From Raphidiopsis brookii D9 (GTDB taxonomy: Bacteria > Cyanobacteriota > Cyanobacteriia > Cyanobacteriales > Nostocaceae): a stretch of DNA of 32,000 nucleotides. Shown piece by piece: positions 2,846 to 21,743 of this stretch. The stretch covers positions 60,001 through 92,000 of the forward strand of contig ACYB01000004.1 in assembly GCA_000175855.1 (NCBI GenBank), in the 5' to 3' direction. How positions within the stretch are numbered: position 1 is the first letter of the stretch; every line of letters starts with the position of its first letter. The notes under the pieces are model-generated. The model ran no database searches. It was not told where the DNA came from and saw only the letters and a list, made by a program, of their open reading frames with translations. A program made the translations under genes and the position numbers.

Positions 2846-4723
2846 CTATTGGACACTCTTGGTCAAATTAGTTCTTAAAGAAGCAAAATGCTGACCACCA
2901 AGTTCAATTTTATCCGCGATACAACCATGTTTCAACCTATCAATTAGATATTCTGTGTCTCGAGCAATTAAATTAGTACCATGGTCTGGTTCTATTAAGC
3001 TGACTAGTTTGATGTGTTTTGTTGGTTGAACGGAGAAATTAGCAAGGCCCAGAAAATTAAACACACCTGACTCATAAGTACCACAGGGTACAGAAGGATT
3101 ATCAACACCAAAACAATATTCATCCTCTTGAAACCAATCAAAAGCGGGATAACCATGAAAGTGAACAATTGGGGCTCCATTTTCAATTAGTTCTGGTGCA
3201 TATAAAGCAGCAGACAAACTAATTGCCAGCATGACATAAATATCGTAGGAAGGTTTGATGTCAGATTTATGGGAATTATTTGCTGGTGGTAGTTGGAGAT
3301 GTAAATTATTGGTTAGTCCAATGCGCAGAACATCCTGTTCCAAACTCAGGTCTGTTTTATTGGAACCTGAGCGGGAACTAACTAACCAAATATCGGGAAT
3401 TTGCTTAAATATATAATCTGCACCAATCCGTGTTTTTAAAAACCGTCTACCTGATTGATTTTTTCGCACTTCATCACTATTCAATCCAGGAATTGCTAAT
3501 AAATCTTCCCATTGGGTGGCACTTATTTCCCTTTCTCCCACATAGGAAGGTGGTTCTATATAGGCTATAAAACCATAGGAAACGCCAGTTCTCCCATTGA
3601 CGATAACATTTACTATATCCCTATGGGATTTTCTTTTAATCACCTCGGTTAATTTGAAACCTGGTGGAAACAAACCTGTTGAGGTCAGTTCCTTACCTAA
3701 CTTTGCTAATTTGTGAGCATAGGGAGATAGATAGGGATTATAGACTCCCAGTTCAAATCTATTCATTAATAGGGGAGTAATGGGAACATAAATTTTAGGA
3801 ATTAGGGATTTTAATATGAAATCATCAATTTCTGTCCTAGGAAAAATAGAATCAGATAAATTCATATTTAGGATAGAGATTTGTTCTTTAGATACCCCTA
3901 TTACTATTTCAGAAAATGTTTGAATCAGGGTGTTAATTCCAATACTAATTTTCTCTTGATAGTGAGTTAATGGACTCACAAATTTATCATCGATGTCGCT
4001 AAGAATGATCACTTGAGTATTGGTGGGATCTTCAACATATTTAGCAGCGTGGTCTTCGGCCCAACTACTCAACTTAGCAATTTGCACAACAGACATGTTC
4101 TGTTTATTGATTAACCAATGATAAGATAAAGTGTAAATACTTTCCGCGACAAATATACCTAACTTTCTGAACCATGAATTGGGTCTTGCTACATCTATTA
4201 CCGCATTAATTTCTGATCTTACCCCCTTAATTGTAAAAGAATAATGCCAATTAATAATGGGAATATTAATTTTATAACAAAAGTCCCTAATAGAATCTTG
4301 CCAAGGAACCACAGCAACACCCAGAGTTTTTAATTTAATAGCTAAATCCTGACGGAATTTAGTAATTCTATGATTATCATACCCATTGGGTAAGGGTCTA
4401 AAGGTGACACTGAGGTTTTTAGCCATAATGTGCGGGTTAATAATGGGGGGTTGATATTCTATAGGTAGTTCACTTGTGAACCCCCCAATCAACTTACCAA
4501 TGGTTTGTAAACTAATACCGGAAATGGGATTTTCTGTGGTAGAGTTGCTAGAGATATCCATTTCTTGCAATAGGGCCAAAATATCTCCTTTATGGGTAGC
4601 AATTTCCGCTTGCATTTCCGGTGTAATTATTCCTTTGGGAGAGCGGATATTTAGTTGTTGATTCTCGATCCAAAATTCCACACCTTGCTTAGTTAAAAGT
4701 GCTAAGATTTCTGATGCGTTCAT
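2846..4723 (-). CDS. Orphan protein: TubC-type N-terminal docking domain plus ~560-aa unassigned domain (625 aa from the ATG at 4723)
   Basis: From the ATG at 4723-4721 (GGAG 9 nt upstream) the protein begins MNASEILALLTKQGVEFWIENQQLNIRSPKGIITPEMQAEIATHKGDILALLQE. This matches the TubC N-terminal docking-domain pattern (L..L...GV.LW.E...L....P.G..TPE....I..HK..I..LL). I recognise no catalytic motif in the rest. The listed 698-aa ORF start (4942) would overlap the upstream ACP gene, and that extension is low-complexity. Confidence 0.7.
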   Translation of the reverse strand: MNASEILALLTKQGVEFWIENQQLNIRSPKGIITPEMQAEIATHKGDILALLQEMDISSNSTTENPISGISLQTIGKLIGGFTSELPIEYQPPIINPHIMAKNLSVTFRPLPNGYDNHRITKFRQDLAIKLKTLGVAVVPWQDSIRDFCYKINIPIINWHYSFTIKGVRSEINAVIDVARPNSWFRKLGIFVAESIYTLSYHWLINKQNMSVVQIAKLSSWAEDHAAKYVEDPTNTQVIILSDIDDKFVSPLTHYQEKISIGINTLIQTFSEIVIGVSKEQISILNMNLSDSIFPRTEIDDFILKSLIPKIYVPITPLLMNRFELGVYNPYLSPYAHKLAKLGKELTSTGLFPPGFKLTEVIKRKSHRDIVNVIVNGRTGVSYGFIAYIEPPSYVGEREISATQWEDLLAIPGLNSDEVRKNQSGRRFLKTRIGADYIFKQIPDIWLVSSRSGSNKTDLSLEQDVLRIGLTNNLHLQLPPANNSHKSDIKPSYDIYVMLAISLSAALYAPELIENGAPIVHFHGYPAFDWFQEDEYCFGVDNPSVPCGTYESGVFNFLGLANFSVQPTKHIKLVSLIEPDHGTNLIARDTEYLIDRLKHGCIADKIELGGQHFASLRTNLTKSVQ

Positions 4724-4857
4724 GACTAAGTCTCCAATATGAAAAAAAGTGATTAATGATAAAAAGCTGCGAGAAAAAAAAGACACTTGGCTGAACGGAT
4801 TGTATAGTCCTCCATTCAGTCCCAGTGTCAGTCTTAGAGGAGGAAAACTGGAAAATC

Positions 4858-5145
4858 TTAAATTTGCAATATTTCTGAGGAGGAATTTTCTAATTCTTGA
4901 GCTAATCGTTGTGCTAATTGTTGAATGGTGGGATAGTACCACAAGTACATCAGGGACAATTTAAATCCCAAAATTTTTTCGGCTTTACTTGCTAAAATCA
5001 TAGCTTGTTGTGAATCTAAACCATAACTATCTAAAGGTTGTTGAATATCTATTTCTTCTGGATTTACTCCTAATATGAAAGCAATGTTGTTAACTAGCCA
5101 ATGTTCAATATCCCCAGCACTATTTAGCTTAGTTATTTGACTCAT
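4858..5145 (-). CDS. Discrete acyl/peptidyl carrier protein (PP-binding), 95 aa
   Basis: Type I PKS/NRPS-style carrier signature: IDIQQPLDSYGLDSQQAMILASKAEKILG...LWYYPTIQQLAQRLA. The phosphopantetheine Ser codon is at 5011-5013. GGAGG lies 8 nt upstream of the ATG. Confidence 0.85.
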   Translation of the reverse strand: MSQITKLNSAGDIEHWLVNNIAFILGVNPEEIDIQQPLDSYGLDSQQAMILASKAEKILGFKLSLMYLWYYPTIQQLAQRLAQELENSSSEILQI

Positions 5146-5184
5146 CTATTTACCTCCAGTTTCTTAATCATTAAAATCTTTAAT

Positions 5185-6558
5185 TCATGATACCTGAGAT
5201 GATAAATAGGAAATTTCTTCAATCATTTCCATAAATTCATTCACCAGTTTTTCCATAGTGGGTTGACTCAGGGAAGGTTGGGAAAAGACGAAATTTAATA
5301 ACATCTTGCCTTGAAAAGTGGCAACATGAAGGATAAACATACCTGCATATAGTGCGTGAGAACCCGCAAAACTGATTTCTTCAAGTTGTAATTCACCATA
5401 TATTTCAGGGATGTTAACCTTACCAATATTAGAAACGGAAACATTAGCAGCAATTTGATGAGGAAATAGAAAGCAAAAGTTAATCAGATGTTTAGCAAGA
5501 AATACCATTTTAAAAATATCCCCTCTATGGATACTTGCTGCTAAGGATTGTTTAATCCTCCTGGCCAGATCCCAAAAATAGGTGTTGGTTGTGATAGTGT
5601 GAAAACTCATCTGGGATGTGGCTAATAGACCAATATTCTCTTCATTGATGGGTGGTTGTAAACGTCTTCTTAAGTCAAAGTAGGATAGACAATTTAATCG
5701 AATAGACTTACACTGCTGGTTGAGAATTTTTTTAGCTACTGTCAATAACATGGCAGCAGATAAGGCACTTTGTACTGTGGCATTTTCTGCTCGACATTGG
5801 GCAAAAAATTTTTCAGCTGTCTCTGATAATATTTGTCTATGAATTATTTGGGAGTTCCTCTGAGAAATGGGAACATATTTTTCCACTTTTAAAGTTTGTG
5901 GAGGGTTAGTCAGTTTCTCCCAGGCGATCTTTAACAGTAATATCCATCTATTTAACTTTGCTCCTTTTAAATGACCCAATATTTTTTCTGGTGGTGGTAA
6001 TGGGGGTAAAAGACTAAGCGTATCCGAAAAATTACCAGAGGTAATTTGTGCATAATAGGTGAAGATTTCTGAATGTAGATTAACACTTGATAAACCATCA
6101 GCAATTGCATGATGTACGGTAGTCAATAGATGATTAACCTTTGGATTTTCTTGATTAATAATTAGTACCGCTCGCATCAGGTATCTACCACTATCAATTG
6201 GTTGATTCATTTCCTGATTAACAACTTCTTGCCATTCTTTCTCCTCCGAATTAATTACCGCCCGTAAAGGTATTTTTTCTGTAGTACCCGGTTGCAAATA
6301 AAACCGATTGCGAAAATTATGTTGATGGGTAATAATATGAGAGTTCAGAACTAAATGACGATACTGCAAAATATCTAGAGCTTCTCTCAAAACTGGTTTG
6401 TGGATGTAGCCTCGAATGCAACTAATAGTAACCAAATTCCAGGTTTTCGCACGTTGGTTGAGAAGTTCCATAGTAGTTTCTAAACTACTCAATTGTCTTG
6501 TATGGACAGGATTAAAAAAATATTTAGAGTTTTTCTGGAATATATTGAGTATACTCAT
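5185..6558 (-). CDS. Stand-alone condensation-domain-like acyltransferase (HHxxxDG superfamily), 457 aa
   Basis: Catalytic motif VHHAIADGLSS is encoded at 6094-6114. The size and N-terminal RQLSSLE segment fit free-standing C / PapA5 / WS-DGAT-type enzymes. The start at 6558 overlaps the upstream ER gene by 35 nt; an alternative ATG is at 6471. Confidence 0.75.
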   Translation of the reverse strand: MSILNIFQKNSKYFFNPVHTRQLSSLETTMELLNQRAKTWNLVTISCIRGYIHKPVLREALDILQYRHLVLNSHIITHQHNFRNRFYLQPGTTEKIPLRAVINSEEKEWQEVVNQEMNQPIDSGRYLMRAVLIINQENPKVNHLLTTVHHAIADGLSSVNLHSEIFTYYAQITSGNFSDTLSLLPPLPPPEKILGHLKGAKLNRWILLLKIAWEKLTNPPQTLKVEKYVPISQRNSQIIHRQILSETAEKFFAQCRAENATVQSALSAAMLLTVAKKILNQQCKSIRLNCLSYFDLRRRLQPPINEENIGLLATSQMSFHTITTNTYFWDLARRIKQSLAASIHRGDIFKMVFLAKHLINFCFLFPHQIAANVSVSNIGKVNIPEIYGELQLEEISFAGSHALYAGMFILHVATFQGKMLLNFVFSQPSLSQPTMEKLVNEFMEMIEEISYLSSQVS

Positions 6559-8188
6559 CGGGAATCTGTAATCCTTGAATTTTTAAGTTTTGGATGCGGT
6601 ATAGGAATGCTGCTCCCGTCATGATATGGTTAGCAACTTCAACAACTTGACGATTTTGAGGTTGAGCTAAATAAGAACCTTGCACCCAATCATTAAAGCT
6701 ACCCATAGCTGGTCCACACCAAATTTGATAGTCAATTTCTCTACCCTTTTCTCCAGTATTGGACCAACGAGAAGAGAGTCCTAAATACCAACGGAAAATT
6801 AATGCCATTTTCAATTTAGGATTGTTTGCTGCTTTGGTTAACTTTTCTGGATTTCTTTGAGATAAATAATTAATTGTCTCTTGCCAAACCTCCTGCCAAG
6901 ATTTTTTAAAAACTTGTTTTTCTAATTTATCTCTTTCTGAGTTGGGAACTTCCTCTATTGATTGATAGGTTTTATATAACTCATATAGTTTTTGAGCGCG
7001 GAGGGGAAAAAGAGTTCCTCGTTTGAGAACTTGTAATTTCACACCCATTTCAAACATATCAGCTGCTGGAGCCATCATCACATCAGCCATTTGAGCTTGG
7101 GCTAATAATTGCTTTGTGTGTGCAGAAGTTCCAGCTTCCATACAAGATTGATTTACGGAACCGGTAACAACATAAGCAGCACCCATAATAAAAGCAGCTA
7201 AGGCTGATTTGGGTGTGGAAATTCCCCCAGCTACACCAATTCTTACTGGATTTTTATAATTGTATTGATTTTGAATTTCATTTCTTAGTTCCAGAATAGA
7301 AGGTAATAAACAAATTAGGGGACGATTATCCGTATGTCCTCCGGAATCAGCTTCCACCGTGATATCATCGGCCATGGGAATTTGACTGGCAATATTAGCT
7401 TGTAGTTCACTAATTAAACCTTGTGCTACCAGTTGTTTAAGAATTTGAGTGGGAGCAGGATGTAAAAATTTTGCTGCTACCTCCTGACGGGAAATTTTAG
7501 CAATAACTTTATTTCCGATTTCAATTTCATTAGCTGAATTTAGACTCAATCCCGCAGCTCGATAATAAACTATGTTGTCAGTTAAATCTAAAAAGGCTGA
7601 TGCTTCAACTACTTTGACATGGTATTTTAGGTACAAATCTACGTTATGTCGTTCTATTGCTGGTTCACTAGGACTATGGAGTAAGTTAAAACCGTAAGGT
7701 TGTTGATTTAGGGAATGTTGAATTTTATCAATGGCTTTTTCCACACGAGAGGGAGATAAACCACCCGCACCAAAGACGCTTAAAATTCCCGCTCTCCCCA
7801 ATGCAATTACCATTTCTTCTGATGCTATTCCCTGGGCCATTGCTCCAGTCATATAAGCATATTTCACACCATAAGACTTGAGAAAATTTTCATCCCCCAG
7901 TTGTACAGTTGTTAAGGAAGGAACCGTCATTAACATTTCTAGCTGAGTACTACCCCCAGAGACACTTTCTTCATTGGTAATACCAATTTTATTTTCATGT
8001 CTGACTATATAACAAGGTTTTTCTAAGACTCCCAACTTTGATTTGATTTCTTTTGCATCGAATGCAACCGTATTAAAATCACCTTGCCATGAGCGATGGT
8101 TAATAAGATGATTAATAAATAAATTAGAAACTCGCAGATAATTATCTCGATTAATGTCTAGATTGATGATATTTTCTGTAACTAACAT
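6524..8188 (-). CDS. PfaD-type trans-acting enoyl reductase (nitronate monooxygenase-like FMN enzyme), 554 aa
   Basis: The length and stretches such as YAYMTGAMAQGIASEEMVIALGRAGILSVFGAGGL, EADSGGHTDNRP and MAPAADMFEMGVKLQVLKRGTLFP are typical of PfaD / PKS trans-ER proteins. Confidence 0.9.
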   Translation of the reverse strand: MLVTENIINLDINRDNYLRVSNLFINHLINHRSWQGDFNTVAFDAKEIKSKLGVLEKPCYIVRHENKIGITNEESVSGGSTQLEMLMTVPSLTTVQLGDENFLKSYGVKYAYMTGAMAQGIASEEMVIALGRAGILSVFGAGGLSPSRVEKAIDKIQHSLNQQPYGFNLLHSPSEPAIERHNVDLYLKYHVKVVEASAFLDLTDNIVYYRAAGLSLNSANEIEIGNKVIAKISRQEVAAKFLHPAPTQILKQLVAQGLISELQANIASQIPMADDITVEADSGGHTDNRPLICLLPSILELRNEIQNQYNYKNPVRIGVAGGISTPKSALAAFIMGAAYVVTGSVNQSCMEAGTSAHTKQLLAQAQMADVMMAPAADMFEMGVKLQVLKRGTLFPLRAQKLYELYKTYQSIEEVPNSERDKLEKQVFKKSWQEVWQETINYLSQRNPEKLTKAANNPKLKMALIFRWYLGLSSRWSNTGEKGREIDYQIWCGPAMGSFNDWVQGSYLAQPQNRQVVEVANHIMTGAAFLYRIQNLKIQGLQIPDEYTQYIPEKL

Positions 8189-8300
8189 TGTGGAAAACCT
8201 TTGTTGGAAGTGATTGGGGAAACCTATGAGCAGGAGGATATTGAACTAATACTTCCCACCCACTCCTCCCCCTTGTTTGATATAAATTTTGATATCAACC

Positions 8301-11108
8301 CTATTTAATTCTATCAGCTTGGTCAATTTTCCGCTGATAAACCTCTATTTTATGCCCAATTAAAGAACTCATTTGCTGGAATGATACTTCCCGAGATTTT
8401 AATAAAAGGGTATGGGCTTGATTCATCATTACATGATTCTGACTCAATTTTTTATACTGAGACTGCAACGAATAGGGGAAAATGGACTTGAAGATTTTTG
8501 TCGACTTTGGTAAATTTACAGCATGATTCTTATCCACTTGGGTTGGTAAATAATAATTGACCTGTTCTACATTAGTCAGATCATATAAAGCTGATAGGTC
8601 TAAGGAAACTTGATGACTAACTAGTCTAGCTAAAGCTCTCACAATTGAAGTATGATCTTCCATACCTCTTCTATTTAAAGAGACAGCAAGATGTTCTTTT
8701 TCCTTCAGGGTTGAACTAATCCATCTTGAACAGTTACCACCAACCCCTACTTCGATAAATATTCTAATGTTGTCATCATAAACCCGGTTAATTAACCGAG
8801 GAAAATCAAGTTGGTGACAAAGATTTTTGGCTATGTTATTACCAATAATTTCACTGTCTATGGTAAATGGTTCATAATTCCCCCCAGAGTAAAAGGTTAT
8901 CCCCGGTATATCTTGAGTTGGCAAAGTATTCATTTTGGCCAGTTCTCCATACTGCGATCGCATGGGTGGACAGTGAATGACATGATCAATCGAGGTGGGA
9001 AAAGCATCACACTGAAGTTTTTCAATTATCCTTTGACAGGCTTGTTTTTCTCCAGCAATGACTACTTCATCTGGTGTATTAATCAAGGGAATATAAACCC
9101 GATTTTCATCTTTAATTGCTTCTTTCACCCGAGAAACCGGACAAAGAACAATATAGTTACCCCAAAAATCTTCATTCTTGTTATTATCATCTGGAGGTAA
9201 TGCCCAAGCTTGACGAACAGCATTTTTTGGTCCAGAAAGTTCGGTCTTAAATAGGGGGGAAGCATTTAAATAATCACTGGTGCTTTTAAAACTAGTCCAA
9301 ATACCTTGCGCTAACATCATACTAGTTTCACCCAAACTATAACCAAAAGCACATTGGGGTTGGAGATGAAAATAGTTTTTAAAAACTGCGGTAATTAATC
9401 CAGCAAAGCCAACCTCCGACTCTAGCATGGCTACCGGGTCATCTATTAGTTTCTGTTCCATAGCTTCTAATTCTCTACTGGTCGCTTTATTGATGGTGCG
9501 AGGATAAAGAATTTTTTCGATGTTAGCTACCCGTTCATACACATTATTAATTACTCGGTCATCATAAATTTTAGGGAATAGTCGAAACAGACTTCTTCCT
9601 AATCCTATATAAGATGTAAATGAGCCAGAATAAACATAGGCTATTTTACCTTTTTTGGACAGGGGATTAACTGTGAAATAACTACCTAGGGGAGTTTGCC
9701 AATCTTTCCCAGTAGCAAATGTGTCTTTGATTCCTTCAATACCTCTGTTTATTTCTTGGATTAATTCTTCTAAATTTCTGCCGAGAATTGCGACGATATA
9801 GTTTTTTATGGCGTATGTATTTTGGGATCTTTGGTAATTTTGAAATTCTTGAAATGTTTGCCTTGCTAGATGAGATAGAGAAGAATGATTTTGCTTTAGA
9901 TAGTTTTGCAATTTGATCATCTTTTCTACCAGAGAGGACTGATTTTCACCAGCTATGGGAAATAGATAATAAGGCATTTGGGCCAAATATTTACTACTCC
10001 GTTCTAGTTCACTGCTTGTTTCTGACAGAATTATATGTATATTTCTGTCAGTTTCTATGCTGTTAATAGCAGCTATTCGTTTAGAGGTGTTTATTTCTAA
10101 AAACCAGGGTTTGGATTGGGTTGGAAAATAAAAGGGAGTGTTATGCCAAATATCTAATTTTTTGACACCAGTCCATTGGGGAACAGCTGGGATATAACGA
10201 TGATATAAACAAAGTGCAGTTTTAATCAAACTCATCATTCCTGACGCGGTATGAGTGTCACCAATATTAGTCTTCACACTACCTAAAGCACAGGTCAAAT
10301 TAGACTTTTGAGTTTTGTAAGCAGCGATTAAACCTTGAACTTCCCCATCATCTTCTTCCCTAATACCACTAGCATGAACTTCTATATAACCAATATCTTT
10401 AGCTGTAACTTCTGCTATCTCAAAAGCTGTTTGACAACAGCGGGTAATTGCTTGTGCTTGGTTTGGATACTTATCCACTATACTGACAGCATCAATTACT
10501 GCATAAATGTGAGAATTTTGTTGTTTGGCCGTTTCTTCCAGTTGCAAAATTATTATTCCTATTCCTTCTCCTGATAAAGTCTTAGTAGCATTTTGGTCAT
10601 AGCTGAGAGTTTGTTGACCTGTATCATTCTCAAAATTTTCAGAATTTTCGTGATCCCAATCTATTGCTGCTATTAAAACAGCATTTACTTGATTTTTAGT
10701 GAGTAGTTTTTGTGCTAAATCTAACGCTGAAAAGACCGATTTTTCTTCAGCGAATGCTGGGCTTGTTGCATTCCATAACTGGGAAATATAACTAGCCAAT
10801 TTATTTTGGTGGTCACTTTGGAATCTACTCACCAATATCACTGCGATTTTAGTTTCTTCACTTAAGGTAGCAGTTTTGAGAGTATTCTCAGCCACCTTTA
10901 ACATTAGTTTTTGTGGTGGTGACAAATTTTCTATCTGTGGTAAAGGAACTTTCCATGATGGCTCAAGATTATAGTTAATAGGTGCAAAATTCTGCTTTCC
11001 TTCATAAATAATACGTTCAAAACTATCTAGTTCCTGAGAACCACTCACTAGGCAATCCAACCCCACAATTGCCATTTTCTGAAATTGACTTCCTATTAAC
11101 TCCTGCAT
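8301..11108 (-). CDS. Ketosynthase-like (no active-site Cys) / acyltransferase didomain protein, 935 aa
   Basis: The N-terminal half has a KS fold but degenerate catalytic residues. By my hand alignment, AEEKSVFSALDLA sits where DTACSSSL is expected, HASGI replaces HGTGT, and NIGDTHTASG replaces NIGHxxxAAG. The C-terminal half is an AT with GYSLGE (Ser codon 9346-9348) and a downstream HCPPM motif. GGAG lies 8-11 nt upstream of the ATG. Confidence 0.85.
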   Translation of the reverse strand: MQELIGSQFQKMAIVGLDCLVSGSQELDSFERIIYEGKQNFAPINYNLEPSWKVPLPQIENLSPPQKLMLKVAENTLKTATLSEETKIAVILVSRFQSDHQNKLASYISQLWNATSPAFAEEKSVFSALDLAQKLLTKNQVNAVLIAAIDWDHENSENFENDTGQQTLSYDQNATKTLSGEGIGIIILQLEETAKQQNSHIYAVIDAVSIVDKYPNQAQAITRCCQTAFEIAEVTAKDIGYIEVHASGIREEDDGEVQGLIAAYKTQKSNLTCALGSVKTNIGDTHTASGMMSLIKTALCLYHRYIPAVPQWTGVKKLDIWHNTPFYFPTQSKPWFLEINTSKRIAAINSIETDRNIHIILSETSSELERSSKYLAQMPYYLFPIAGENQSSLVEKMIKLQNYLKQNHSSLSHLARQTFQEFQNYQRSQNTYAIKNYIVAILGRNLEELIQEINRGIEGIKDTFATGKDWQTPLGSYFTVNPLSKKGKIAYVYSGSFTSYIGLGRSLFRLFPKIYDDRVINNVYERVANIEKILYPRTINKATSRELEAMEQKLIDDPVAMLESEVGFAGLITAVFKNYFHLQPQCAFGYSLGETSMMLAQGIWTSFKSTSDYLNASPLFKTELSGPKNAVRQAWALPPDDNNKNEDFWGNYIVLCPVSRVKEAIKDENRVYIPLINTPDEVVIAGEKQACQRIIEKLQCDAFPTSIDHVIHCPPMRSQYGELAKMNTLPTQDIPGITFYSGGNYEPFTIDSEIIGNNIAKNLCHQLDFPRLINRVYDDNIRIFIEVGVGGNCSRWISSTLKEKEHLAVSLNRRGMEDHTSIVRALARLVSHQVSLDLSALYDLTNVEQVNYYLPTQVDKNHAVNLPKSTKIFKSIFPYSLQSQYKKLSQNHVMMNQAHTLLLKSREVSFQQMSSLIGHKIEVYQRKIDQADRIK

Positions 11109-11174: not shown

Positions 11175-14100
11175 TTAGTAACTATTGGGCAAGATTGTGG
11201 CTTTTGCTCCCTTCATCCGATTATAAACTTGTCCTTTTTGACTGTGAGTAATTACATCAGCAACTACATAAGATTCAGTTTTGGATTTGATTTCACAAGT
11301 TACATAAAACGTTTCTCCAAAGGGAACAGGTGCAAATTGTTCAAAATTTTCAATTTCTGATGGTAAACAACCAACTTGATGAAAATGTTGAGTCCAAATC
11401 CACAGAGAATGTACCTGTACATCCGCTATATAGGGGTTAAAAGTCTGTACTCTGAATTGTCCCTGTTGGTGTAATGTAGGTTCGGGGAGTTCACATTTCA
11501 TAGTCAGTTTACCGGGACTGATATTTAACACAGATTTTACCCCTTGAAAAGTATTACCATGAAATAAACTACCCACACCAGTTTGATATAGTAAGGAATT
11601 GCTGGCTAGGAATTGCCCATCTTGGGTGAGGTTAAAAAGTTCATAGTTATCAGCTGGAGGAACTTGTCTTTTCAAAATTAGGTTACTACTAAAATGATAT
11701 CTGATTTTTCCATGGTTGGTAACACTACTAATTTTGCCCACAAGGTGAATTTCTTGATTGTCAATTTTAGCAATTTCTTGAATTTCAAGAATATATTCAT
11801 GGGGGGAATTTTGGTCAAAAACAATTCCTTTAAGGACTTTAAAGTTAGGACAGTGAAATATCTGGAAACCAGGATAGAGTTGTTCACAACTGCTAGATAT
11901 CCACGACAGTCCACAAGTTGCGGGAAGAACTGGATTACCCGCAATCACATGATCCTGTAAAAATGGGTTATAGTTTAACTTTAATTGACGGGTGATTTGA
12001 TGGGTTTTTAGTTCACTAGACAAGGTAGAAGGAATATAGACTAAGGGACTACCAATTACTACTTGGGTCATGCTTGAATCACTAGTTCTTAGTTGATCAA
12101 CTAAGATACTACTACCCAGTTCTTGGGGAATGGTTTCAATTCCTCGTTGTGCAAATGCTGTCTGTAATTCCGGAGAAACCATACCACTATCCCAAGGACC
12201 CCAATTAATGGAGACTACATGACAATTAGGGTATTTATGTTTAATTACATGGGCTGATTTGTTGAGAATTTCGTTAGCTATTGCATAGTCCGTCTGTCCA
12301 ACGTTACCATAAAATCCCACTACTGAAGAAAATAGGATTAAATATTCCAGTTGATTTGTTTCCACAATATTGAGTAGGTTTTCTAAACCCTGAACTTTGG
12401 CAGCATAAACTGTTTCAAAATCTTGAACTGTCTTTTTCTCAATTCTTTTATCTGCTAAGTTACCCGCACCATGAATGATTCCAGTTATAGTGCCAAATTG
12501 GTCAATTATAGGTCTTAGCTTTTCTTTCAACATCATACCATCGGTGATATCAACACAGATATATTCTGCTTTTCCTCCTGCTTCATTAATTGCTTTTAAT
12601 GTATTGTGTATTTCTCTTTGGGAGGCAATAGTTTGATATTTTTTCTGCACCATTATGGGAGTGGGTTTTTCTCCCTTGGACAGAAAATCTTCCATGATTC
12701 GCCGTTTCAGTTCATTTTCATCTTCATATCCTTCAGACCAAACAGGTTCAATTTCTGCACTAGAACGTCCTAAAAGAATAAACTTGCATTGGTATTCTTC
12801 AGCCAATTTGATTACACATTTAGCAGTAATTCCCTTAGCACCCCCACTAACTAAAAAAACCTGGTCTTTAGTAATATTTAATGAATCGGGAATGATGGAT
12901 GATTTAGTAGGTTCTGCTACTAAGGTAAATCTATCTGTTTTATTATATCCCACCTCCGTAACTAATAAATTAGGATCTTGCAATTCAGCCAGAATATGTT
13001 TTACGGTTGTGTCCCCATCTAAATCAGGACTTAAATCTAGGGTACGACAAAATACTTCTGGCCATTCTTGATTTAAACTTTTAGTTAGTCCAAATAATCC
13101 TCCACTAATGGGACTAAAATTGTGAGTTTTTGCCGTTCCTAATTCACCATCTAATCTCACAACTGCAAAAAAGCAAGCACGTTCTTTTTTAGTCAGTTGA
13201 TTTAGATCTTCCTTCAGATGTTTGGCAATTAAAAACACGTGCTGAACAATGGCTTGATCTATTCCCAAGTTATTGTTGGAGTAAGGATGTAGATGAATAA
13301 AACCACCTACACAACCAAACTTGCTGGTAAGTTCGGTCAAATGTTCTTGCAAAGTTTCTTCATGCCAATCGTTTAATCTGATTTGAGCAATCTCCTCCGA
13401 TAGGTTTGACTCCAAGTATGGAAAGGTTAAAACAACAGTTTTACATCCTTTATCTGCAAGCTTAGCTACTAACCTATGGGTAACTTCCGAACCATCATTA
13501 GTAATTAAGACAAAATGATTTTCTGGAATGGTTAAATCTAAACTGTCTGGTTGAGGAAGTGCTTTTAATTGCACCGGAAGGCGCAGGATTTTATCCGCTA
13601 CTTCCGTGGTTGACGTGTCTGGTTTTTCTGATGTGGATAAATTGGACCTCTCCACAGTTTCAGCTTGATTGCGCATATAGTCAGCAATTTGTTCCAGAGT
13701 TGCCAATTGCGCTAATTCTTCTGGGTTAGGTCTGGGTAGATCCGGGTAAAGTTCTAAAAGTCCTCCCAGAATTTCTACTCTTTTGATAGAGTCAATTCCT
13801 AAATCTGCTTCCATATCCATGGAAGGGTCTAACATTTCCACAGGATAACCTGTTTTATCACTAACAATAGTGAGCAAGATCTGACTTAAATTATCGGGAA
13901 TGGTAATTGTTGTAGATCTATTTGATAAGTCTTCATGTAAGTCGTCATGGGGTAAAACCAAGAATTGTGGATGATTATGGTGTTCACTAAGAGTCTCCTC
14001 TAGGGGTTGATTTTGACCCAGCTGTGTAATTAAGTTGTTTATATACTCAGCAATTTGTTCCAGAGTTGCCAATTGCGCTAATTCTTCTGGGTTAGGTCTG

Positions 14101-17100
14101 GGTAGATCCGGGTAAAGTTCTAAAAGTCCTCCCAGAATTTCCACTCTTTTGATAGAGTCAATTCCTAAATCTGCTTCTATATCCATGGACAAGTCTAACA
14201 TTTCCACAGGATAACCCGTTTTATCACTGACAATATTGATCAGGGTCTCCCTCAGTTTTCCTTTATCAATATGAGTAGCTATGGGAAAATCGACTGTAAT
14301 GTCAGGTAGATTATTCTGGGAATTATTTTCCGGTTCTAGAGGATAAATTAACTTTTGTGCTGGTGGGTCACTTTGTGCAACATGGGAAGATGGAAGATGA
14401 GAATACCCATTGGGAGACCCTACCTCTAACAAGCTATAGTGCTGCTCGAGTAATTGAAAGTAATTATTGGTATACTCCTGTTGATAATTGAGATATTTTT
14501 CGTGAATACGAATGGTTTCAGCTTGATGGTCGTGTAGTTGCATCATGCTACGTTCCGTACTAGAAATTGCCAACTGTTGTGTTTGAGCTTGATATTCATT
14601 AGTTTCTTCCTTCCCTAGGAACAAACACTGTTGCTGCATTAATTCATAAAAGGTTTTATTGTACTCTATTTGATTTTGCAAAGACTGTTGATGTGCATGA
14701 TTAATTTCACTTTGCTGTCGAGTAAATTCTGCTAATGATTGTTCCAAACTATCAAGAATTCGATCATAGTTTTCCACGGGAATTTCTATCTTTTGTTCTA
14801 CCATACTATAGTTTTTAACTTCAGAATTAGTTTTTGAATTGAGGATACTTGATGAGGTTATTTCTGGATTTATCTCCACTAATGTTTTCTCTGGCTGAGT
14901 TTGATAATTTTCTTCACTAACCCTTGTTATTGGGATAACTGAACCAGTTGCTAAAGCCTGAGCAAATGCTTTTTGTGATCTGTCATTAATATTGGTAGCA
15001 TTCAATCTGATATTCAAAGTTTTTTGTTCATTTTTCTGTGAAGCTGAAGAAATTTTAGTAGGAATTTGATAGGGATCTAGGTTTTTTAATGGTACACCAA
15101 AAACTCGCAATTTGGTAACAGCTTCCCGTAATAATAAATCACTATCTTGACGATAATTAGCATTTAATGCTACCGCAATATGAGGCTTGTCTACCAAGAT
15201 TTCTTTGACTAAATTAGTAAGAATATTTTTGGGACCAAACTCAATAAAACAATTACCACCAGCTTGATATATATTCTCAATCTGTTGTTGAAATAACACC
15301 TGATTTAATAAATGTTCCTGGAGAATTTTTTGCATGGATCCAGGTTTATTAGGATATAATTTTCCTGTCACATTGCTATAAACCGGAATGCGAGGTGGTT
15401 GAAAATTCACTTGTGCGATCGCATGGGCGAAGGGTTTTTGTGCATGGGAGACTAACGGTGTGTGGAAAGCAGCGGAAACCCCTAATAAGAAACAGGAGAA
15501 CCCCTGAGCTTGTAAAACATTCTGTAATTGAGTAATTTCTGATTTGTTCCCAGCTAGAACTATTTGCTGTGGGGAATTATAGTTAGCAATAGCAACTTGG
15601 GGAAAGTCTTTAATGAATTCGGTTACTTGGCTGATATTACCTTTTACTGCTAACATTCCTCCAGCATCCACTTCTGGGGATGTGGACATTGCTTTTCCCC
15701 TAGCTTTGACCAGAAAGAAATAATCTTCTTCAGTTAATACACCTGCAGACCATAGAGCTGTTAATTCTCCAAAACTATGTCCAGCAACAAAATCAACTTT
15801 CAACCCAGCTTGCTGCAATATTTTATATAATCCTGCACTCAATACTCCTATTGCTGGTTGTGCATATTCAGTTTTTTGCAGTTTTTCTAATTGTTCTTGT
15901 CGTTCCTGTGGACTGAAAACTGGAGTGGGGAAGACTACTTGAGAAAGAGATTCTAATCCCTCACGGGAGAATAAATCATCTAGATGAGAGTAGGTTTGTC
16001 GTAAGCAGGGAAAGTTAATTACTAATTCTCTTCCCATTTCCAAGTATTGGGAACCTTGTCCGGAAAATAAGGCCACTACTTTTCCGGTTGTTTCCATACC
16101 CTGTTGACGATAATAAATTCCTTTGGGATGTTCCCAAAAATCAACAGAAGGTTGATTTTTTAGCAAATCAATAATGATAGCTAAATGGGCTATTGCTTGG
16201 CTTAAAGAAAGGGTGGTGAATCCTACTCTAGCATGATCAACAGGAATTATCAATTGTTCAGATTCGGCAATTATTCTTTGATAATGTTGTTCTTTATCTG
16301 TTGATTCTAACTGTTGATAAAGATGTTGACATTGAGATAATAACTCTGGCGTTGTGGGTGCGCTCAAGAAAATTGACTTAGCGCAATTATGCAATCTATA
16401 TGATTGATGATGTTCTGATTCATATTCTTCCAAAACTACATGATAATTTGTACCTCCAAAACCAAAGGCGCTCACCCCAGCTCGTCTCGGTTGATTGCTA
16501 ATCCATGGTCTGGTTTCCGTGTTTAAATAAAAGGGAGAATTTTCAATATTCAGTTTGGGATGGGGTTGGGTAATGTTAATAGTTGGTGGTAATACCTTAT
16601 GATGTAATGCCAAGGCGGTTTTAATTAAACTAGCAGCACCCGCAGCAGCTTTTGTGTGTCCAATTTGAGATTTAACCGTTCCTAAAGCTATGTGTTGTTT
16701 TAGAGAGTTATTATCGCCAAATACCTGATTTATTGAAATAAATTCCGTAGGGTCTCCCACCATAGTTCCCGTACCATGAGCTTCAATTAAACCCACAGTT
16801 TGAGGTGCAAAACCAGCATTTTCATAAGCCCGACGAATGGCTTTTACCTGTCCTTGGGAATGGGGAGCGTAAATGCTTTTGTATTTACCATCACTGGAAC
16901 TGCCAATACCCTTGATGACAGCATAAATGCGATCGCCATCTTTAACAGCATCTTCCAGACGTTTGAGTACCAACATTCCCACGCCCTCACCTAACATCAT
17001 ACCATCGGAATTGACATCGAAGGGTCTAACGTTTTCACTGGGGGAAACTGCGGGAGTTTTACTAAAACACATATAGGCAAAAATGGAATTATCGGTATCA

Positions 17101-17945
17101 ACCCCACCTGTAATCATCATATCAGCACGATGGGCAAGCAATTCGCTGATTGCCATATTCAGTGCGCCCAGGGAACTAGCGCAAGCAGCATCAACTACAC
17201 AATTAGTTCCGCCCAAATCAAGTCGGTTGGCAATTCTCCCGGAAATTACATTAGCCAACATTCCAGGGAACGCATTTTCCTCCCATTGTATATAAGCACT
17301 TTTGAGTTTCTCAATTACTTTTTCAGTCTCATCATCAGAAAGTCCACAGTTTTTAAAAACTTTTTTCCAAATGGGATATTGTAATCGTGACCCCAAAGGT
17401 ACTGCCAATTGTCTACCAATTGCCACACCTAATATTACCCCTGTACGATCCCGATCAAACTGTTGGGACTCACTATAACCAGCATCTTCCATAGCTGCTT
17501 TAGCGACAACTAAACCTAATAATTGAGAAATATCCGTCACTTCTAGAATATTTGGTGGTAAACCAAACTCCATAGGATTAAAATCAATATCGGGGATGAA
17601 ACCACCTCTTTTACAGTAAGTTTTATCGGGTGCTTTAGGATTGGGATCATAATAGTCTTCCACGCTCCAGCGGGAAGCAGGCACATCTGTAATGCAATCT
17701 ATTTTATCCATTATGACCTGCCAATACTCCTGCAAGTTTCTTGACTCGGGAAATAGGGAAGCCATACCAATAATTGCAATTTGATTACTTTGATTACCAC
17801 CATTATAATTTTGAGAATATTCCATGGTTTTTTTCCCTTTAATCAAGTTTAATACATCTCGTTCACAATTGCTAACTTCATCCTGCAATTGTGCTAAATC
17901 TGACTCAAATTTGGCGTGATTCATGGCGATATTGTGCTTTTTCAA
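11175..17945 (-). CDS. PfaA/HglE-like type I synthase: KS-AT-(Gln-rich linker)-ACP-ACP-KR-DH, up to 2256 aa
   Basis: KS: DAACASS (Cys codon 17181-17183), EAHGTGT, KSQIGHTKAAAG. AT: GHSFGE (Ser codon 15774-15776), AAFHTPL. Two ACPs: LGIDSIKRVE (Ser codons 14154-14156 and 13788-13790). KR: VSGGAKGIT plus a GQTDYAIAN Tyr motif. PS-DH: HVIAGNPVLP (His codon 11949-11951), LFHGNTFQ, ADVQVH. The start is uncertain: TTG at 17945, ATG at 17924, or ATG at 17825, which has an AAGGGA-like SD and gives a typical 15-aa lead into IAIIGMA. Confidence 0.95.
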   Translation of the reverse strand: MKKHNIAMNHAKFESDLAQLQDEVSNCERDVLNLIKGKKTMEYSQNYNGGNQSNQIAIIGMASLFPESRNLQEYWQVIMDKIDCITDVPASRWSVEDYYDPNPKAPDKTYCKRGGFIPDIDFNPMEFGLPPNILEVTDISQLLGLVVAKAAMEDAGYSESQQFDRDRTGVILGVAIGRQLAVPLGSRLQYPIWKKVFKNCGLSDDETEKVIEKLKSAYIQWEENAFPGMLANVISGRIANRLDLGGTNCVVDAACASSLGALNMAISELLAHRADMMITGGVDTDNSIFAYMCFSKTPAVSPSENVRPFDVNSDGMMLGEGVGMLVLKRLEDAVKDGDRIYAVIKGIGSSSDGKYKSIYAPHSQGQVKAIRRAYENAGFAPQTVGLIEAHGTGTMVGDPTEFISINQVFGDNNSLKQHIALGTVKSQIGHTKAAAGAASLIKTALALHHKVLPPTINITQPHPKLNIENSPFYLNTETRPWISNQPRRAGVSAFGFGGTNYHVVLEEYESEHHQSYRLHNCAKSIFLSAPTTPELLSQCQHLYQQLESTDKEQHYQRIIAESEQLIIPVDHARVGFTTLSLSQAIAHLAIIIDLLKNQPSVDFWEHPKGIYYRQQGMETTGKVVALFSGQGSQYLEMGRELVINFPCLRQTYSHLDDLFSREGLESLSQVVFPTPVFSPQERQEQLEKLQKTEYAQPAIGVLSAGLYKILQQAGLKVDFVAGHSFGELTALWSAGVLTEEDYFFLVKARGKAMSTSPEVDAGGMLAVKGNISQVTEFIKDFPQVAIANYNSPQQIVLAGNKSEITQLQNVLQAQGFSCFLLGVSAAFHTPLVSHAQKPFAHAIAQVNFQPPRIPVYSNVTGKLYPNKPGSMQKILQEHLLNQVLFQQQIENIYQAGGNCFIEFGPKNILTNLVKEILVDKPHIAVALNANYRQDSDLLLREAVTKLRVFGVPLKNLDPYQIPTKISSASQKNEQKTLNIRLNATNINDRSQKAFAQALATGSVIPITRVSEENYQTQPEKTLVEINPEITSSSILNSKTNSEVKNYSMVEQKIEIPVENYDRILDSLEQSLAEFTRQQSEINHAHQQSLQNQIEYNKTFYELMQQQCLFLGKEETNEYQAQTQQLAISSTERSMMQLHDHQAETIRIHEKYLNYQQEYTNNYFQLLEQHYSLLEVGSPNGYSHLPSSHVAQSDPPAQKLIYPLEPENNSQNNLPDITVDFPIATHIDKGKLRETLINIVSDKTGYPVEMLDLSMDIEADLGIDSIKRVEILGGLLELYPDLPRPNPEELAQLATLEQIAEYINNLITQLGQNQPLEETLSEHHNHPQFLVLPHDDLHEDLSNRSTTITIPDNLSQILLTIVSDKTGYPVEMLDPSMDMEADLGIDSIKRVEILGGLLELYPDLPRPNPEELAQLATLEQIADYMRNQAETVERSNLSTSEKPDTSTTEVADKILRLPVQLKALPQPDSLDLTIPENHFVLITNDGSEVTHRLVAKLADKGCKTVVLTFPYLESNLSEEIAQIRLNDWHEETLQEHLTELTSKFGCVGGFIHLHPYSNNNLGIDQAIVQHVFLIAKHLKEDLNQLTKKERACFFAVVRLDGELGTAKTHNFSPISGGLFGLTKSLNQEWPEVFCRTLDLSPDLDGDTTVKHILAELQDPNLLVTEVGYNKTDRFTLVAEPTKSSIIPDSLNITKDQVFLVSGGAKGITAKCVIKLAEEYQCKFILLGRSSAEIEPVWSEGYEDENELKRRIMEDFLSKGEKPTPIMVQKKYQTIASQREIHNTLKAINEAGGKAEYICVDITDGMMLKEKLRPIIDQFGTITGIIHGAGNLADKRIEKKTVQDFETVYAAKVQGLENLLNIVETNQLEYLILFSSVVGFYGNVGQTDYAIANEILNKSAHVIKHKYPNCHVVSINWGPWDSGMVSPELQTAFAQRGIETIPQELGSSILVDQLRTSDSSMTQVVIGSPLVYIPSTLSSELKTHQITRQLKLNYNPFLQDHVIAGNPVLPATCGLSWISSSCEQLYPGFQIFHCPNFKVLKGIVFDQNSPHEYILEIQEIAKIDNQEIHLVGKISSVTNHGKIRYHFSSNLILKRQVPPADNYELFNLTQDGQFLASNSLLYQTGVGSLFHGNTFQGVKSVLNISPGKLTMKCELPEPTLHQQGQFRVQTFNPYIADVQVHSLWIWTQHFHQVGCLPSEIENFEQFAPVPFGETFYVTCEIKSKTESYVVADVITHSQKGQVYNRMKGAKATILPNSY
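13681..13869 (-). repeat. ACP-coding tandem repeat, copy 2 (366-bp period)
   Basis: A ~189-bp block aligns base for base with 14047-14235. I count 8 mismatches (~96% identity), and the first ~95 nt are identical. Confidence 0.9.
14047..14235 (-). repeat. ACP-coding tandem repeat, copy 1 (366-bp period)
   Basis: Partner of 13681-13869. It encodes SDKTGYPVEMLD.SMD.EADLGIDSIKRVEILGGLLELYPDLPRPNPEELAQLATLEQIA.Y. Confidence 0.9.
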
Positions 17946-19017: not shown

Positions 19018-19043
19018 TTGGAACTGATTCAAATTCTAGGTGT

Positions 19044-19090: not shown

Positions 19091-19256
19091 CTAGAAACTC
19101 CATCTTGCTTGTTAAATAAAATTCAGCATATCACGCCATATCAATTGTAGTTATCAAAAGAATGCTATCTACCGCCGTATTATAAGTAGCTTGTCTCAAA
19201 CCACAAGGTTAAAACTTGATTTAAGGGATAGTAAACGGATAACTAAAGGCATAATT

Positions 19257-20456
19257 ATGGTAGACAAAGAAAAGCATTTACTTGTCAATTTTAGAAGTTG
19301 GTTGTTAATTAGTTTAGCGACTACCACATTTATATCTACCCTACTCATATCTTTTCAAAGTATTTCAAATTTCCAGACTAAATCCCAATCCAAGGTGGCA
19401 ATTCCCATTAATACTCCCAGTCCAATAATTACTGGTGTTGCTGCTTTAGGAAGACTAGAACCCCAAGGAGAAATAATTCGCTTATCTGCTTCTAACTCTT
19501 TGGGAGGAGGTATAAGAATAGCAAAACTTCTGGTCAAAAAAGGCGATAAAATTCGTCAAGGTCAATTAATTGCCTTTTTGGACAATTATAGTCTTAATCT
19601 TGCAGCTTTAGAAAAGGCCAAAAGACAAGTAGAAGTAGCAAAAGCCAATCTAGAAAAAGTAGAAGCTGGAGCAAAACAGGGAGATATTTATGCCCAAAAA
19701 GCCACCATTGGGCGATTGGAAGCAGAATTGCGTGGTGAAACATCAGCACAAAAAGCCATAATTGCTAGATTGCAAGCTGAATTAAATAATGCACAAAGAG
19801 AAAATCAGAGATATGAAGATTTATATGAAAATGGAGCAGTTTCCGCTTCAAATGCAGAGAGTAAACGCCTAAGAAGAGACACTCTACAGCAACAAATAAA
19901 TGAAGCAAAAGCAGCACTAAATAGAACTCAACAAACTTTGCAAAAACAATTAAATGAAGCTCAATCAAGACTCAACAGCATTGTGGAAATTCGTCCTACT
20001 GATCTACAAGTAGCAAAAGCAGATCTGGCAAGTGCAAAAGCTTCAATTACCCAGGTTCAAGCGGAATTAGATTTAAGTATAATTCGTTCACCCATTGATG
20101 GACAAGTTTTAAAAATTAATGCTTGGCCAGGAGAAATAATTAGTAGTCAAGGTATTGCTGAATTAGGAAGAACTCAGCAAATGTATGTGGTAGCAGAAGT
20201 TTATGAGACTGATGTTAAAAAAGTAAAATTAGGACAATCTGTAGACATTACTGCTGATGCTTTTCCAGGGAAAATTCAAGGAACAGTTACAGATATTGGA
20301 TTGCAAGTTAATCAGCAAAATATCTTCAATAATCATCCGGGTGCTGATACAGACAACAAAATAGTTGATGTCAAAATTCGGATCAACAATCCCAAAGATA
20401 ACCAAAGGGTTGCAGATTTAACTAACCTACAGGTTCAGGTATGGATCAACATGTAA
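19257..20456 (+). CDS. DevB-family membrane fusion protein (HlyD-like) of a tripartite ABC exporter
   Basis: N-terminal TM segment, then ITGVAALGRLEPQGEIIRLSA, which is typical of DevB-family MFPs. A long coiled-coil (LEKAKRQVEVAKANLEKVEAG...) and a C-terminal beta-barrel region follow. ATG at 19257 (AAAGG upstream) is preferred over the TTG at 19191 used in the ORF track. Confidence 0.9.
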   Translation: MVDKEKHLLVNFRSWLLISLATTTFISTLLISFQSISNFQTKSQSKVAIPINTPSPIITGVAALGRLEPQGEIIRLSASNSLGGGIRIAKLLVKKGDKIRQGQLIAFLDNYSLNLAALEKAKRQVEVAKANLEKVEAGAKQGDIYAQKATIGRLEAELRGETSAQKAIIARLQAELNNAQRENQRYEDLYENGAVSASNAESKRLRRDTLQQQINEAKAALNRTQQTLQKQLNEAQSRLNSIVEIRPTDLQVAKADLASAKASITQVQAELDLSIIRSPIDGQVLKINAWPGEIISSQGIAELGRTQQMYVVAEVYETDVKKVKLGQSVDITADAFPGKIQGTVTDIGLQVNQQNIFNNHPGADTDNKIVDVKIRINNPKDNQRVADLTNLQVQVWINM

Positions 20457-20511
20457 TAGTTAAAAGTTAGGAGTCAATTCACATAACAACTTAAATTAAG
20501 AGGTCTTCAAA

Positions 20512-21684: not shown

Positions 21685-21743
21685 AAACATTAACATCTCC
21701 TATTCTCACAGTTGTCTAAAGTTGTTTCCTAAGTCGGAGGAAT

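Follow-up and report, generated by a model that had tools for sequence, protein, structure and literature searches.

What does a protein with a docking domain known from peptide synthetases do at the end of a bacterial lipid assembly line? The question is raised by a stretch of 32,000 nucleotides from contig ACYB01000004.1 of Raphidiopsis brookii D9 (the window, always meant at its full length), in which the last gene of a co-directional row of lipid-synthase genes, here called gene X, encodes a protein of 625 amino acids (2846..4723, minus strand, stop codon included). Open reading frame (ORF), translation and domain calls bear out both this gene and its place at the end of the row, as a sequence-only reading of the stretch had described them, though that reading was silent on the strand. 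From its N-terminus onwards, X consists of a β-hairpin docking domain (bHD), a linker, an N-terminal α/β body domain and a putative class II aldolase-like domain. We propose that X is a trans-acting metalloenzyme, recruited by an acyl carrier protein (ACP), that terminates an hgl-like lipid assembly line. Taken as a whole, with the chemistry proposed below, this reading is tentative and its chances fall a little short of even.

Translation of X begins at an ATG at position 4723, preceded by a GGAGA ribosome-binding site. A longer, GTG-initiated frame would reach 4942, but it overlaps the ACP gene and the homologues all begin MNASE, so the ATG is the right start. The product is 100% identical to the R. 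brookii D9 protein P0001, annotated 'Non-ribosomal peptide synthase', and many homologues carry the same NCBI name; one JGI record calls a homologue 'desulfoferrodoxin'. Domain content supports neither name. We rejected a non-ribosomal peptide synthetase (NRPS) identity for X, as TubC_N is the sole domain found by Pfam and NCBIfam, with no adenylation, condensation or peptidyl carrier protein domain; the wrong name stems from the docking domain. Nor is X an orphan, as it had been called, if this is taken to mean a protein that lacks homologues. The body alone retrieves 803 proteins at E ≤ 1e-3, an exhaustive HMMER scan yielded 132 clusters at 50% identity, and a separate scan of one genome per species gave relatives in 443 genomes.

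Docking domain of X and the tail of its candidate partner

The TubC-type domain recognised earlier at the N-terminus (4550..4723, minus strand) is genuine, as Pfam, PDB sequences and fold comparison agree. TubC_N (PF18563) matches residues 5-54 at an E-value of 7.7e-15, scoring 55.2 bits where the cut-off is 26, and in a phmmer search of the PDB residues 3-60 alone match TubC (2jug, E 5.6e-7) and AerJ (8aqq, E 9.1e-7). In the AlphaFold2 (AF2) model, DSSP assigns helices to residues 3-12, 35-43 and 45-58 and strands to 16-20 and 23-27. Foldseek aligns the domain with AerJ 8aqq at a target-normalised template-modelling score (TMt) of 0.84 and a root-mean-square deviation (rmsd) of 1.0, and with the N-terminal docking domains of Kj12 at a TMt of 0.75-0.80. 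Strand β2 retains K23, which is at least 90% conserved, and the near-invariant R27. The linker that follows (residues 59-95; 4439..4549, minus strand) is flexible and of low confidence, contains a conserved LQTIGxLIGGF helix, and has predicted local distance difference test (pLDDT) values below 50 at residues 57-65 and, within its C-terminal part, 85-88.

Docking domains of this kind are known from pairs with a short linear motif (SLiM), among them TubB-TubC, the Kj12 rhabdopeptide NRPS, enacyloxin Bamb_5915 and the halogenase AerJ. X has the same α-β-β-α-α TubC_N domain, likewise followed by a low-confidence linker of ~35 residues (59-95), and its presumed partner carrier likewise ends in a short acidic/hydrophobic tail. 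In such pairs, a disordered C-terminal tail of fewer than 15 residues on the carrier protein pairs through its final ~5 residues with strand β2 of the bHD, with salt bridges (PMC9113145). The presence of a bHD on a non-NRPS body, which the sequence-only reading took as a sign of something new, is not new in itself, since trans-acting thioesterases, methyltransferases, reductases and the halogenase AerJ (8aqq) are documented with such domains (PMC9113145). X differs in that its body family is not listed among the known bHD-bearing domains (PMC9113145), and in that the line it accompanies is an iterative lipid synthase of the polyunsaturated fatty acid (PUFA)-synthase/Hgl type rather than an NRPS or modular polyketide synthase (PKS), with a single exception described below.

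The candidate partner is a stand-alone ACP of 95 amino acids with a GLDS phosphopantetheine site (4858..5145, minus strand; Pfam PP-binding, E 1.3e-13). Its C-terminus reads ...AQELENSSSEILQI, and its final 12 residues, ELENSSSEILQI-COOH (4861..4896, minus strand), form a candidate SLiM. We called ORFs in 80 cyanobacterial species loci and matched them to the window proteins. Upstream of X, 78 of these loci have a stand-alone ACP gene, which is no more than 500 bp away in 57, and in a Nostoc subclade the gene for a condensation-domain (C-domain) protein stands between the two (ACP-Cdom-X). The ACP ends in [ED]-x-[FLIMV]-[QEH]-[ILFM]-COOH in 75 of the 78, most commonly as SEIFEI, SEIIQI or SEILQI, and the tail is thus kept to its last residue. 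The C-termini of the PfaA, ketosynthase-acyltransferase (KS-AT), PfaD and C-domain proteins show no comparable conservation. Two loci have no stand-alone ACP upstream of X. One starts at a contig edge; in the other, L077 from an uncultured genome, X follows a 2091-amino-acid modular type I PKS (3729-10004) with a 4-bp overlap, and the terminal ACP domain of that PKS ends ..DDMEEIIL, resembling the stand-alone ACP tails. The docked enzyme is therefore reused at L077 by another kind of assembly line than a Pfa-type synthase with a stand-alone ACP.

The pairing of ACP tail and docking domain, which had been offered as speculative, is well supported by these comparisons, and we infer that the bHD of X docks onto the conserved acidic-hydrophobic tail. 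Co-variation between the two allows no claim, since both partners are too conserved and their differences track phylogeny. Because the bHD would recruit X to the ACP tail, X would act on whatever the ACP carries. The earlier idea of a tailoring, loading or off-loading enzyme recruited by an assembly line therefore stands, as the docking domain is real and its proposed partner is backed comparatively.

Between the ACP gene and X lies a hairpin (4774..4829, minus strand) with a 17-bp stem and an 11-nt loop, followed by U8 (ΔG -26.4 kcal/mol, z -2.4). A simple terminator scan missed it because of the 11-nt loop. It resembles an attenuator or intrinsic terminator within the operon, and X may be transcribed below the level of the ACP, or separately. 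In other species with adjacent genes the spacer measures 7 to ~470 bp, and the hairpin is not conserved.

A putatively aldolase-like body in a wide family

The body of X had been described as unrecognisable. By sequence this holds: residues 61-625 have no match in Pfam, NCBIfam or the PDB, a PDB profile search at E ≤ 10 is also empty, and a 45-sequence profile of the family run against the same three databases finds nothing beyond TubC_N. By structure it does not. An AF2 model of the window protein, based on the 45-sequence alignment, has a pLDDT of 85 and a predicted TM-score (pTM) of 0.83, and a model of the Patescibacteria homologue P0155, which is 24% identical, reaches 92 and 0.92. In both, the class II aldolase superfamily is the sole significant PDB fold match of the body (Foldseek). 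The window protein matches RhaD (E 7.9e-4, probability 1.0, TMt 0.48), AraD (TMt 0.51) and HMPDdc; P0155 matches RhaD (E 1.3e-4), then AraD, pyruvic oxime dioxygenase (POD, 8ix6; E 0.018, TMt 0.44), HMPDdc, a Thermoplasma class II aldolase domain and FucA. The models suggest a class II aldolase/adducin-like fold, strongly diverged and interrupted by large insertions, for the C-terminal ~300 residues (~330-625; 2849..3736, minus strand), which also carry a putative metal site.

Residues of X were mapped to FucA through one co-linear, sub-optimal hhalign alignment, which served for mapping only. In FucA, we take T43-G44 and S71-S72 to be the phosphate pocket, E73 the catalytic acid and H92, H94 and H155 the three zinc ligands (numbering checked on the Escherichia coli sequence). 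On the minus strand of the window, H521-F-H523 in an IVHFHGYP strand (3155..3163) aligns with H92/H94, and H581 in EPDHGTN (2981..2983) aligns with H155, the pair H581-G582 falling on H155-G156; these three histidines are putative metal ligands. The His-x-His...His spacing is 58 residues in X and 61 in FucA. K490-P-S492-Y-D494 (3242..3256) resembles the (K)PSS(E/D)-type motif, in which it could provide the phosphate-binding serine and the catalytic acid or metal ligand, and P491-S492-Y-D494 aligns with P70-S71-S72-E73 of FucA. S452-G453 in SRSGSNKT (3365..3370) aligns with the T43-G44 part of the phosphate pocket. S492 corresponds to S71 of that pocket, whereas S72 is replaced by Tyr or Phe. 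X shares the co-linear elements (S/T)G, PSx(D/E), hhHxH and HG with the class II aldolase/adducin family PF00596 (FucA, RhaD, AraD, MtnB, OtnC, HMPDdc, POD). It differs from this family in the large insertions of its ~300-residue domain, an extra N-terminal domain of ~230 residues, an invariant extra cysteine, and a lipid and carrier-protein context in place of sugar-phosphate catabolism.

All of the mapped residues (S452-G453, S492, D494, H521, H523 and H581) are invariant from cyanobacteria to Patescibacteria, in sets of 45 and 39 sequences. Over the 45 homologues, which extend down to 23% identity, H521, H523, G524, C547, E578, H581, G582 and N584 do not vary. Three patches quoted earlier as conserved-looking (IVHFHGYPAFDWF, VPCGTYESG and LIEPDHGTN) are present in the translation and all hold invariant residues. 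C547, in PSVPCGTYESG (3083..3085, minus strand), is invariant in cyanobacterial, Chloroflexi-type and Patescibacteria members and has no counterpart in aldolases; it may take part in covalent catalysis or provide a further metal ligand.

The N-terminal α/β body domain (residues ~96-329; 3737..4438, minus strand, with an approximate boundary) has no significant fold or sequence match in the PDB. Its invariant residues include F123, N286, N288, K310 and a P309/P314/P317 motif. Matches of this domain to the HDAC8/arginase fold were disregarded as weak (probability ≤ 0.1). We also considered LNMNLS (N286/N288) as a GNxS phosphate motif and dropped it, as both the alignment and the order of secondary structure elements place the aldolase-like domain after residue ~330.

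X is 60-75% identical to proteins throughout the Nostocales, and the cyanobacterial group (~620 amino acids, all with TubC_N) extends to Leptolyngbya, Lyngbya, Symploca, Elainellaceae, Xenococcaceae and Chroococcales. Docking-less relatives of 540-570 amino acids share 35-47% identity and include one from an Anaerolineaceae metagenome-assembled genome (MAG). A large group in Patescibacteria (Parcubacteria, Yonathbacteria) has ~545 amino acids and 23-26% identity. In one variant, P0136 (L107, 7667-10180), a degenerate X body stands between TubC_N and a C-terminal thioesterase. Every mapped catalytic residue has disappeared from this body (His triad, PSxD and S-G), along with other residues that are invariant elsewhere. 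The genes ahead of P0136 encode a PKS, PfaD, a desaturase (FA_desaturase) and an ACP with the C-terminus AESEVFEI.

Outside cyanobacteria, the homologues have neither a docking domain nor an ACP nearby. The sequence-only reading had named a general lack of links to carrier proteins as a point that would count against it; outside cyanobacteria no such link is found nearby, but the contexts remain those of lipid or acyl metabolism. Among five Patescibacteria contigs (L001, L004, L005, L006 and L108), four have the order PlsC-type acyltransferase, X, HisKA_7TM histidine kinase, and in the fifth, L108, three tandem 238-amino-acid paralogues of a seven-transmembrane (7TM) module precede X and the 7TM kinase; the kinase thus follows X in all five. 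A marine group (L008/L009, L110 and L010/L011) shows the order DAGK_cat - PlsC - PlsC - X - His_Phos_1, or X - His_Phos_1 - DAGK_cat. This marine set, with a DAGK_cat/YegS-type lipid kinase, two PF01553 acyltransferases, X and a phosphatase, resembles a self-contained glycerolipid-type module. In two further contigs, one of them from an Anaerolineaceae MAG, X overlaps a downstream ADH_zinc_N reductase. The PlsC-type neighbours of docking-less X keep HX4D (NHxSxxD) and FPEG. The acyltransferase family PF01553 (PlsC/GPAT, with HX4D and FPEG) itself finds no match in X or in the 45-member set (Pfam), so X may work with PlsC-type acyltransferases but is not one.

Proposed chain termination and its alternatives

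The constant unit across the 80 cyanobacterial loci is synthase, ACP and X. Of the 70 loci that reach far enough upstream, 65 contain PfaD. The C-domain gene may lie upstream or downstream of X, be duplicated or be absent, and was detected neither in 16 of the 80 loci nor in Lyngbya. In 26 loci and in Lyngbya, the gene next downstream of X encodes an extended short-chain dehydrogenase/reductase (SDR; Epimerase/3-beta-HSD family), and a HlyD/FtsX/ABC trio directly follows X in Symploca, Xenococcaceae and Lyngbya loci.

Pfa-type synthases are known to employ terminal acyltransferases, such as the myxobacterial AGPAT domain. X most likely serves as a chain-terminating, off-loading catalyst, a role that has moderate support from gene position and from variants of the locus. 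ACP and X together sit where HglB sits in the true heterocyst-glycolipid pathway, and the island has neither HglB, an ACP-thioester reductase (ACP-TR), nor HglT (PMC11804610); HglT glycosyltransferase was not found within the window either (Pfam, NCBIfam). The ACP-X pair also persists where the C-domain is absent, and the lineage with the dead active site, P0136, has gained a thioesterase. Like HglB/HetM, ACP and X occupy the position after HglE/G/C/A-type genes and beside an Hgd/Dev-type exporter, but X and its carrier are separate proteins, joined by the proposed docking, and X has no NAD(P)-binding reductase domain. Specifically, neither a thioesterase α/β-hydrolase nor an NAD_binding_4 reductase domain was found in the window protein by Pfam and NCBIfam. 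With release of the AGPAT or PapA5 type, X would share the concept of off-loading into a lipid backbone, and its relatives are syntenic with PF01553 acyltransferases. It differs in having no PF01553/HX4D or condensation-domain features, and its acyl-transfer role is hypothetical.

We hypothesize that termination proceeds as follows. The bHD of X would bind the tail of the ACP (...S-E-I-L/F-Q/E-I-COOH) of the hgl-like, PUFA-synthase-type line, and the aldolase-like domain would offer a His-x-His...His metal site, predicted from sequence to comprise H521, H523 and H581 with D494, together with a phosphate-type pocket of S452-G453 and S492. A class II aldolase site holds a phosphorylated α-hydroxy-ketone, for instance dihydroxyacetone phosphate (DHAP), on its metal and activates it as an enediolate or alkoxide. 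Speculatively, a metal-bound phosphorylated hydroxy-ketone or polyol of the DHAP kind could likewise attack the acyl-S-ACP thioester. The very-long-chain acyl group would thereby be released as a polar lipid precursor, which could be reduced by the frequently adjacent SDR, optionally be re-acylated by the PapA5-like C-domain protein, and be exported as a lipid by the neighbouring DevBCA/Hgd-type pump. The reductase, PlsC, phosphatase and lipid kinase neighbours of the wider family could be read, again speculatively, as steps of a DHAP route (acyl-DHAP to lyso-phosphatidate, phosphatidate and diacylglycerol). Because these recurrent neighbours fit a DHAP route of glycerolipid assembly, we favour acyl transfer or a Claisen-type condensation onto a DHAP-like acceptor.

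Several observations weigh against this reading. Neither thioester use nor acyl transfer is known to us from any enzyme with a class II aldolase fold, and at the level of titles and abstracts we found no published precedent for a class II aldolase-like enzyme working with an ACP or PKS. The fold match to aldolases is partial, with target-normalised TM-scores of 0.37-0.51 and an rmsd of ~10 Å. A PF00596 search of 45 family members at E ≤ 10 gave no match, and we have not filed X in PF00596 for this reason; hhalign comparison of X with class II aldolases from E. coli and plasmids, first three and then 15, was not significant (P 0.07-0.16). The alignment shows no equivalent of FucA N29. A regular expression of the four motifs in order was applied to 1166 long ORF segments, of which it matched X homologues and true aldolases alone, and to 20,000 shuffles of X, of which it matched none, but it was written after seeing X, so the result is supporting only. 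As to context, X in R. brookii has no reductase gene behind it, some loci outside cyanobacteria come with two PlsC genes of their own and so have less need for X as an acyltransferase, and the most constant Patescibacteria neighbour is the 7TM histidine kinase rather than PlsC.

The same evidence can be set against other roles. Docking implies an ACP-bound substrate, and X might instead modify the tethered chain near the thioester by aldolase-type enolate chemistry, through epimerisation, dehydration, retro-aldol cleavage or β-keto decarboxylation, leaving release to the C-domain or another enzyme. Epimerase (AraD), decarboxylase (HMPDdc, OtnC) and dehydratase activities are established in the superfamily and represented among the fold matches, and a C-domain with HHxxxDG adjoins in the window. 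Such on-line tailoring is nevertheless unlikely, as the loci with no C-domain, Lyngbya included, would need some other releaser, the thioesterase on the dead body of P0136 points to release, and the docking-less relatives adjoin PlsC, kinase and phosphatase genes, not genes for fatty-acid-modifying enzymes. The P0136 fusion would also be senseless if X were a loader that turns a triose phosphate (DHAP, glyceraldehyde 3-phosphate or a related compound) into a C3 acyl unit, glyceryl or lactyl, and places it on the ACP. In that case, C547 could be a covalent way-station, and the C-domain would then esterify the fatty chain from the PfaA ACPs onto the C3 unit, making X a functional analogue of FkbH-type glyceryl-ACP formation. 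This would suit the invariance of C547, the residues that match an aldolase-type phosphate pocket and metal site, the acceptor nucleophile that a C-domain requires, and a stand-alone ACP with no obvious loading enzyme, as neither an adenylation domain nor a fatty acyl-AMP ligase (FAAL) was found in the window cluster by Pfam and NCBIfam. Yet ACP and X persist where there is no C-domain at all, and the Patescibacteria relatives have no ACP nearby; we consider loading quite improbable.

The fold also includes dioxygenases, namely pyruvic oxime dioxygenase and CloR/NovR, and an adducin head that is not an enzyme. If the three-His site bound Fe(II), X could oxidise or cleave the ACP-bound chain, and POD 8ix6 is among the fold matches, while the diiron-like proteins and desaturase that accompany the cluster in many loci imply oxidative steps in the pathway. 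However, Patescibacteria and the Anaerolineaceae-type group, which live largely by anaerobic fermentation, keep all the catalytic residues. This disfavours an O2-dependent reaction, and the PSxD acid and S-G pocket are aldolase-type features. An oxygenase is accordingly very unlikely in our view. Further down the scale stands a non-catalytic adaptor or lipid-binding scaffold, adducin-like, that would link the ACP with the exporter or the membrane, or pass the lipid on, with no chemistry of its own. Adducin sets the precedent, exporter genes are adjacent, and the body of P0136 persists with all its catalytic residues lost, but some 30 residues, among them three His, Asp, Glu, Cys, Lys and Arg, are strictly invariant at 23-25% identity in a manner typical of active sites, and the dead variant needed an added thioesterase. 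We give this role hardly any chance.

The hgl-like island around X

The co-directional row consists of genes for a PfaA-like protein, a KS/chain-length factor (CLF)-AT protein, PfaD, the C-domain protein, the ACP and X, and a convergent YkuD gene lies after X. On the minus strand these are the PfaA/HglE-F-G-like synthase, with the order KS, AT, two ACPs, ketoreductase and dehydratase (11175..17945; TIGR02813, 2169 bits, and Pfam domains), the HglC/PfaB-like KS(CLF)-AT protein (8301..11108; Pfam Ketoacyl-synt_C and the PfaB family TIGR02816), the PfaD/HglA-type enoyl reductase (6524..8188; TIGR02814, E 1e-202) and the PapA5-like stand-alone condensation/acyltransferase protein (5185..6558; Pfam PapA_C and Condensation, NCBIfam PapA5). 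The latter has an intact HHxxxDG motif (VHHAIADG) and no docking domain. As called mechanically, the ORFs of PfaD and of the C-domain protein share 35 bp (6524-6558, minus strand), which may point to translational coupling; related loci show either a 4-bp overlap or a gap between the two. Genes for a HlyD / FtsX / ABC-ATPase exporter of the HgdB/C, DevBCA type (19191..22436, plus strand; Pfam) are divergent from the row. Between these exporter genes and the PfaA-like gene, which point away from each other, lies a 1.2-kb intergenic stretch (17946-19190) that is probably the regulatory region of the island and includes a 107-amino-acid ORF with no Pfam match (18694-19017, plus strand).

This cluster is the published 'hgl-like island' (Perez Gallego et al., PNAS 2025, PMC11804610), whose five ORFs comprise seven homologues of hgl genes (hgdCB, hglEAFGCA). 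That paper names R. brookii D9 as carrying it as its only hgl-type island, reports its conservation in heterocytous cyanobacteria with inferred presence in their last common ancestor, notes that toxic bloom formers which lost their heterocysts retained it, and states that its role 'remains unclear'. The island is defined there by hgl homologues alone, and its main text and parts of its supplement contain no mention that we found of the C-domain, ACP or bHD-X genes. We rejected a heterocyst or akinete glycolipid function, as R. brookii D9 keeps the island without heterocysts and nif genes; the same source concludes alike (PMC11804610).

Other cyanobacterial loci carry additional genes. Many islands have proteins of ~410-445 amino acids between PfaD and the ACP (L065, 6227-7525; L040, 8215-9441; and ~25 other loci), with E..H / D-E-x-R-H motifs that look diiron-like by eye and no Pfam match. 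Subsets of loci include a GT4 glycosyltransferase, a methyltransferase or a KASIII-like protein. Elsewhere in the window, a 422-amino-acid protein (952-2220, plus strand) has three tandem 6-pyruvoyl-tetrahydropterin-synthase (PTPS) matches (E 1.5e-97, three stretches). Typical PTPS/QueD proteins have one such domain of ~120-140 amino acids.

Docking domains on trans-acting non-NRPS enzymes and the hgl-like island itself were already known. What appears to be new is the catalytic family of X, which has no Pfam or NCBIfam model, is misnamed as an NRPS and had not been recognised as aldolase-like. The same seems to apply to its partnership with an ACP that bears a SLiM, a pair that would be the constant terminator module of the hgl-like islands, and to its occurrence in PlsC-linked operons of Patescibacteria and Chloroflexi-type genomes. 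More broadly, the family could be a new metal-dependent class with an aldolase fold that couples acyl-ACP or acyl-CoA to an acceptor of the triose-phosphate type (O- or C-acylation of metal-bound DHAP), acting as an ACP-docked terminator in cyanobacteria and providing the first committed intermediate for PlsC in Patescibacteria and Chloroflexi-type members. We regard this generalisation as doubtful.

ACP and X form the most constant non-synthase part of the hgl-like island and the point that decides the head group of its product, so the chemistry of X is the shortest route to that product. If X does use an aldolase-type metal site on a carrier-bound thioester, assembly lines would gain a new chemistry of chain release or tailoring, and a new catalytic domain would join the SLiM/bHD docking toolkit. 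The docking-less X of Patescibacteria, tied to PlsC and a 7TM sensor kinase, is a candidate for an unexplained membrane-lipid step in these reduced-genome bacteria. Should the coupling of acyl groups to triose phosphate prove true, lineages regarded as incapable of making their own lipids would have a hitherto unrecognised way into the assembly of glycerolipid-like membrane lipids.

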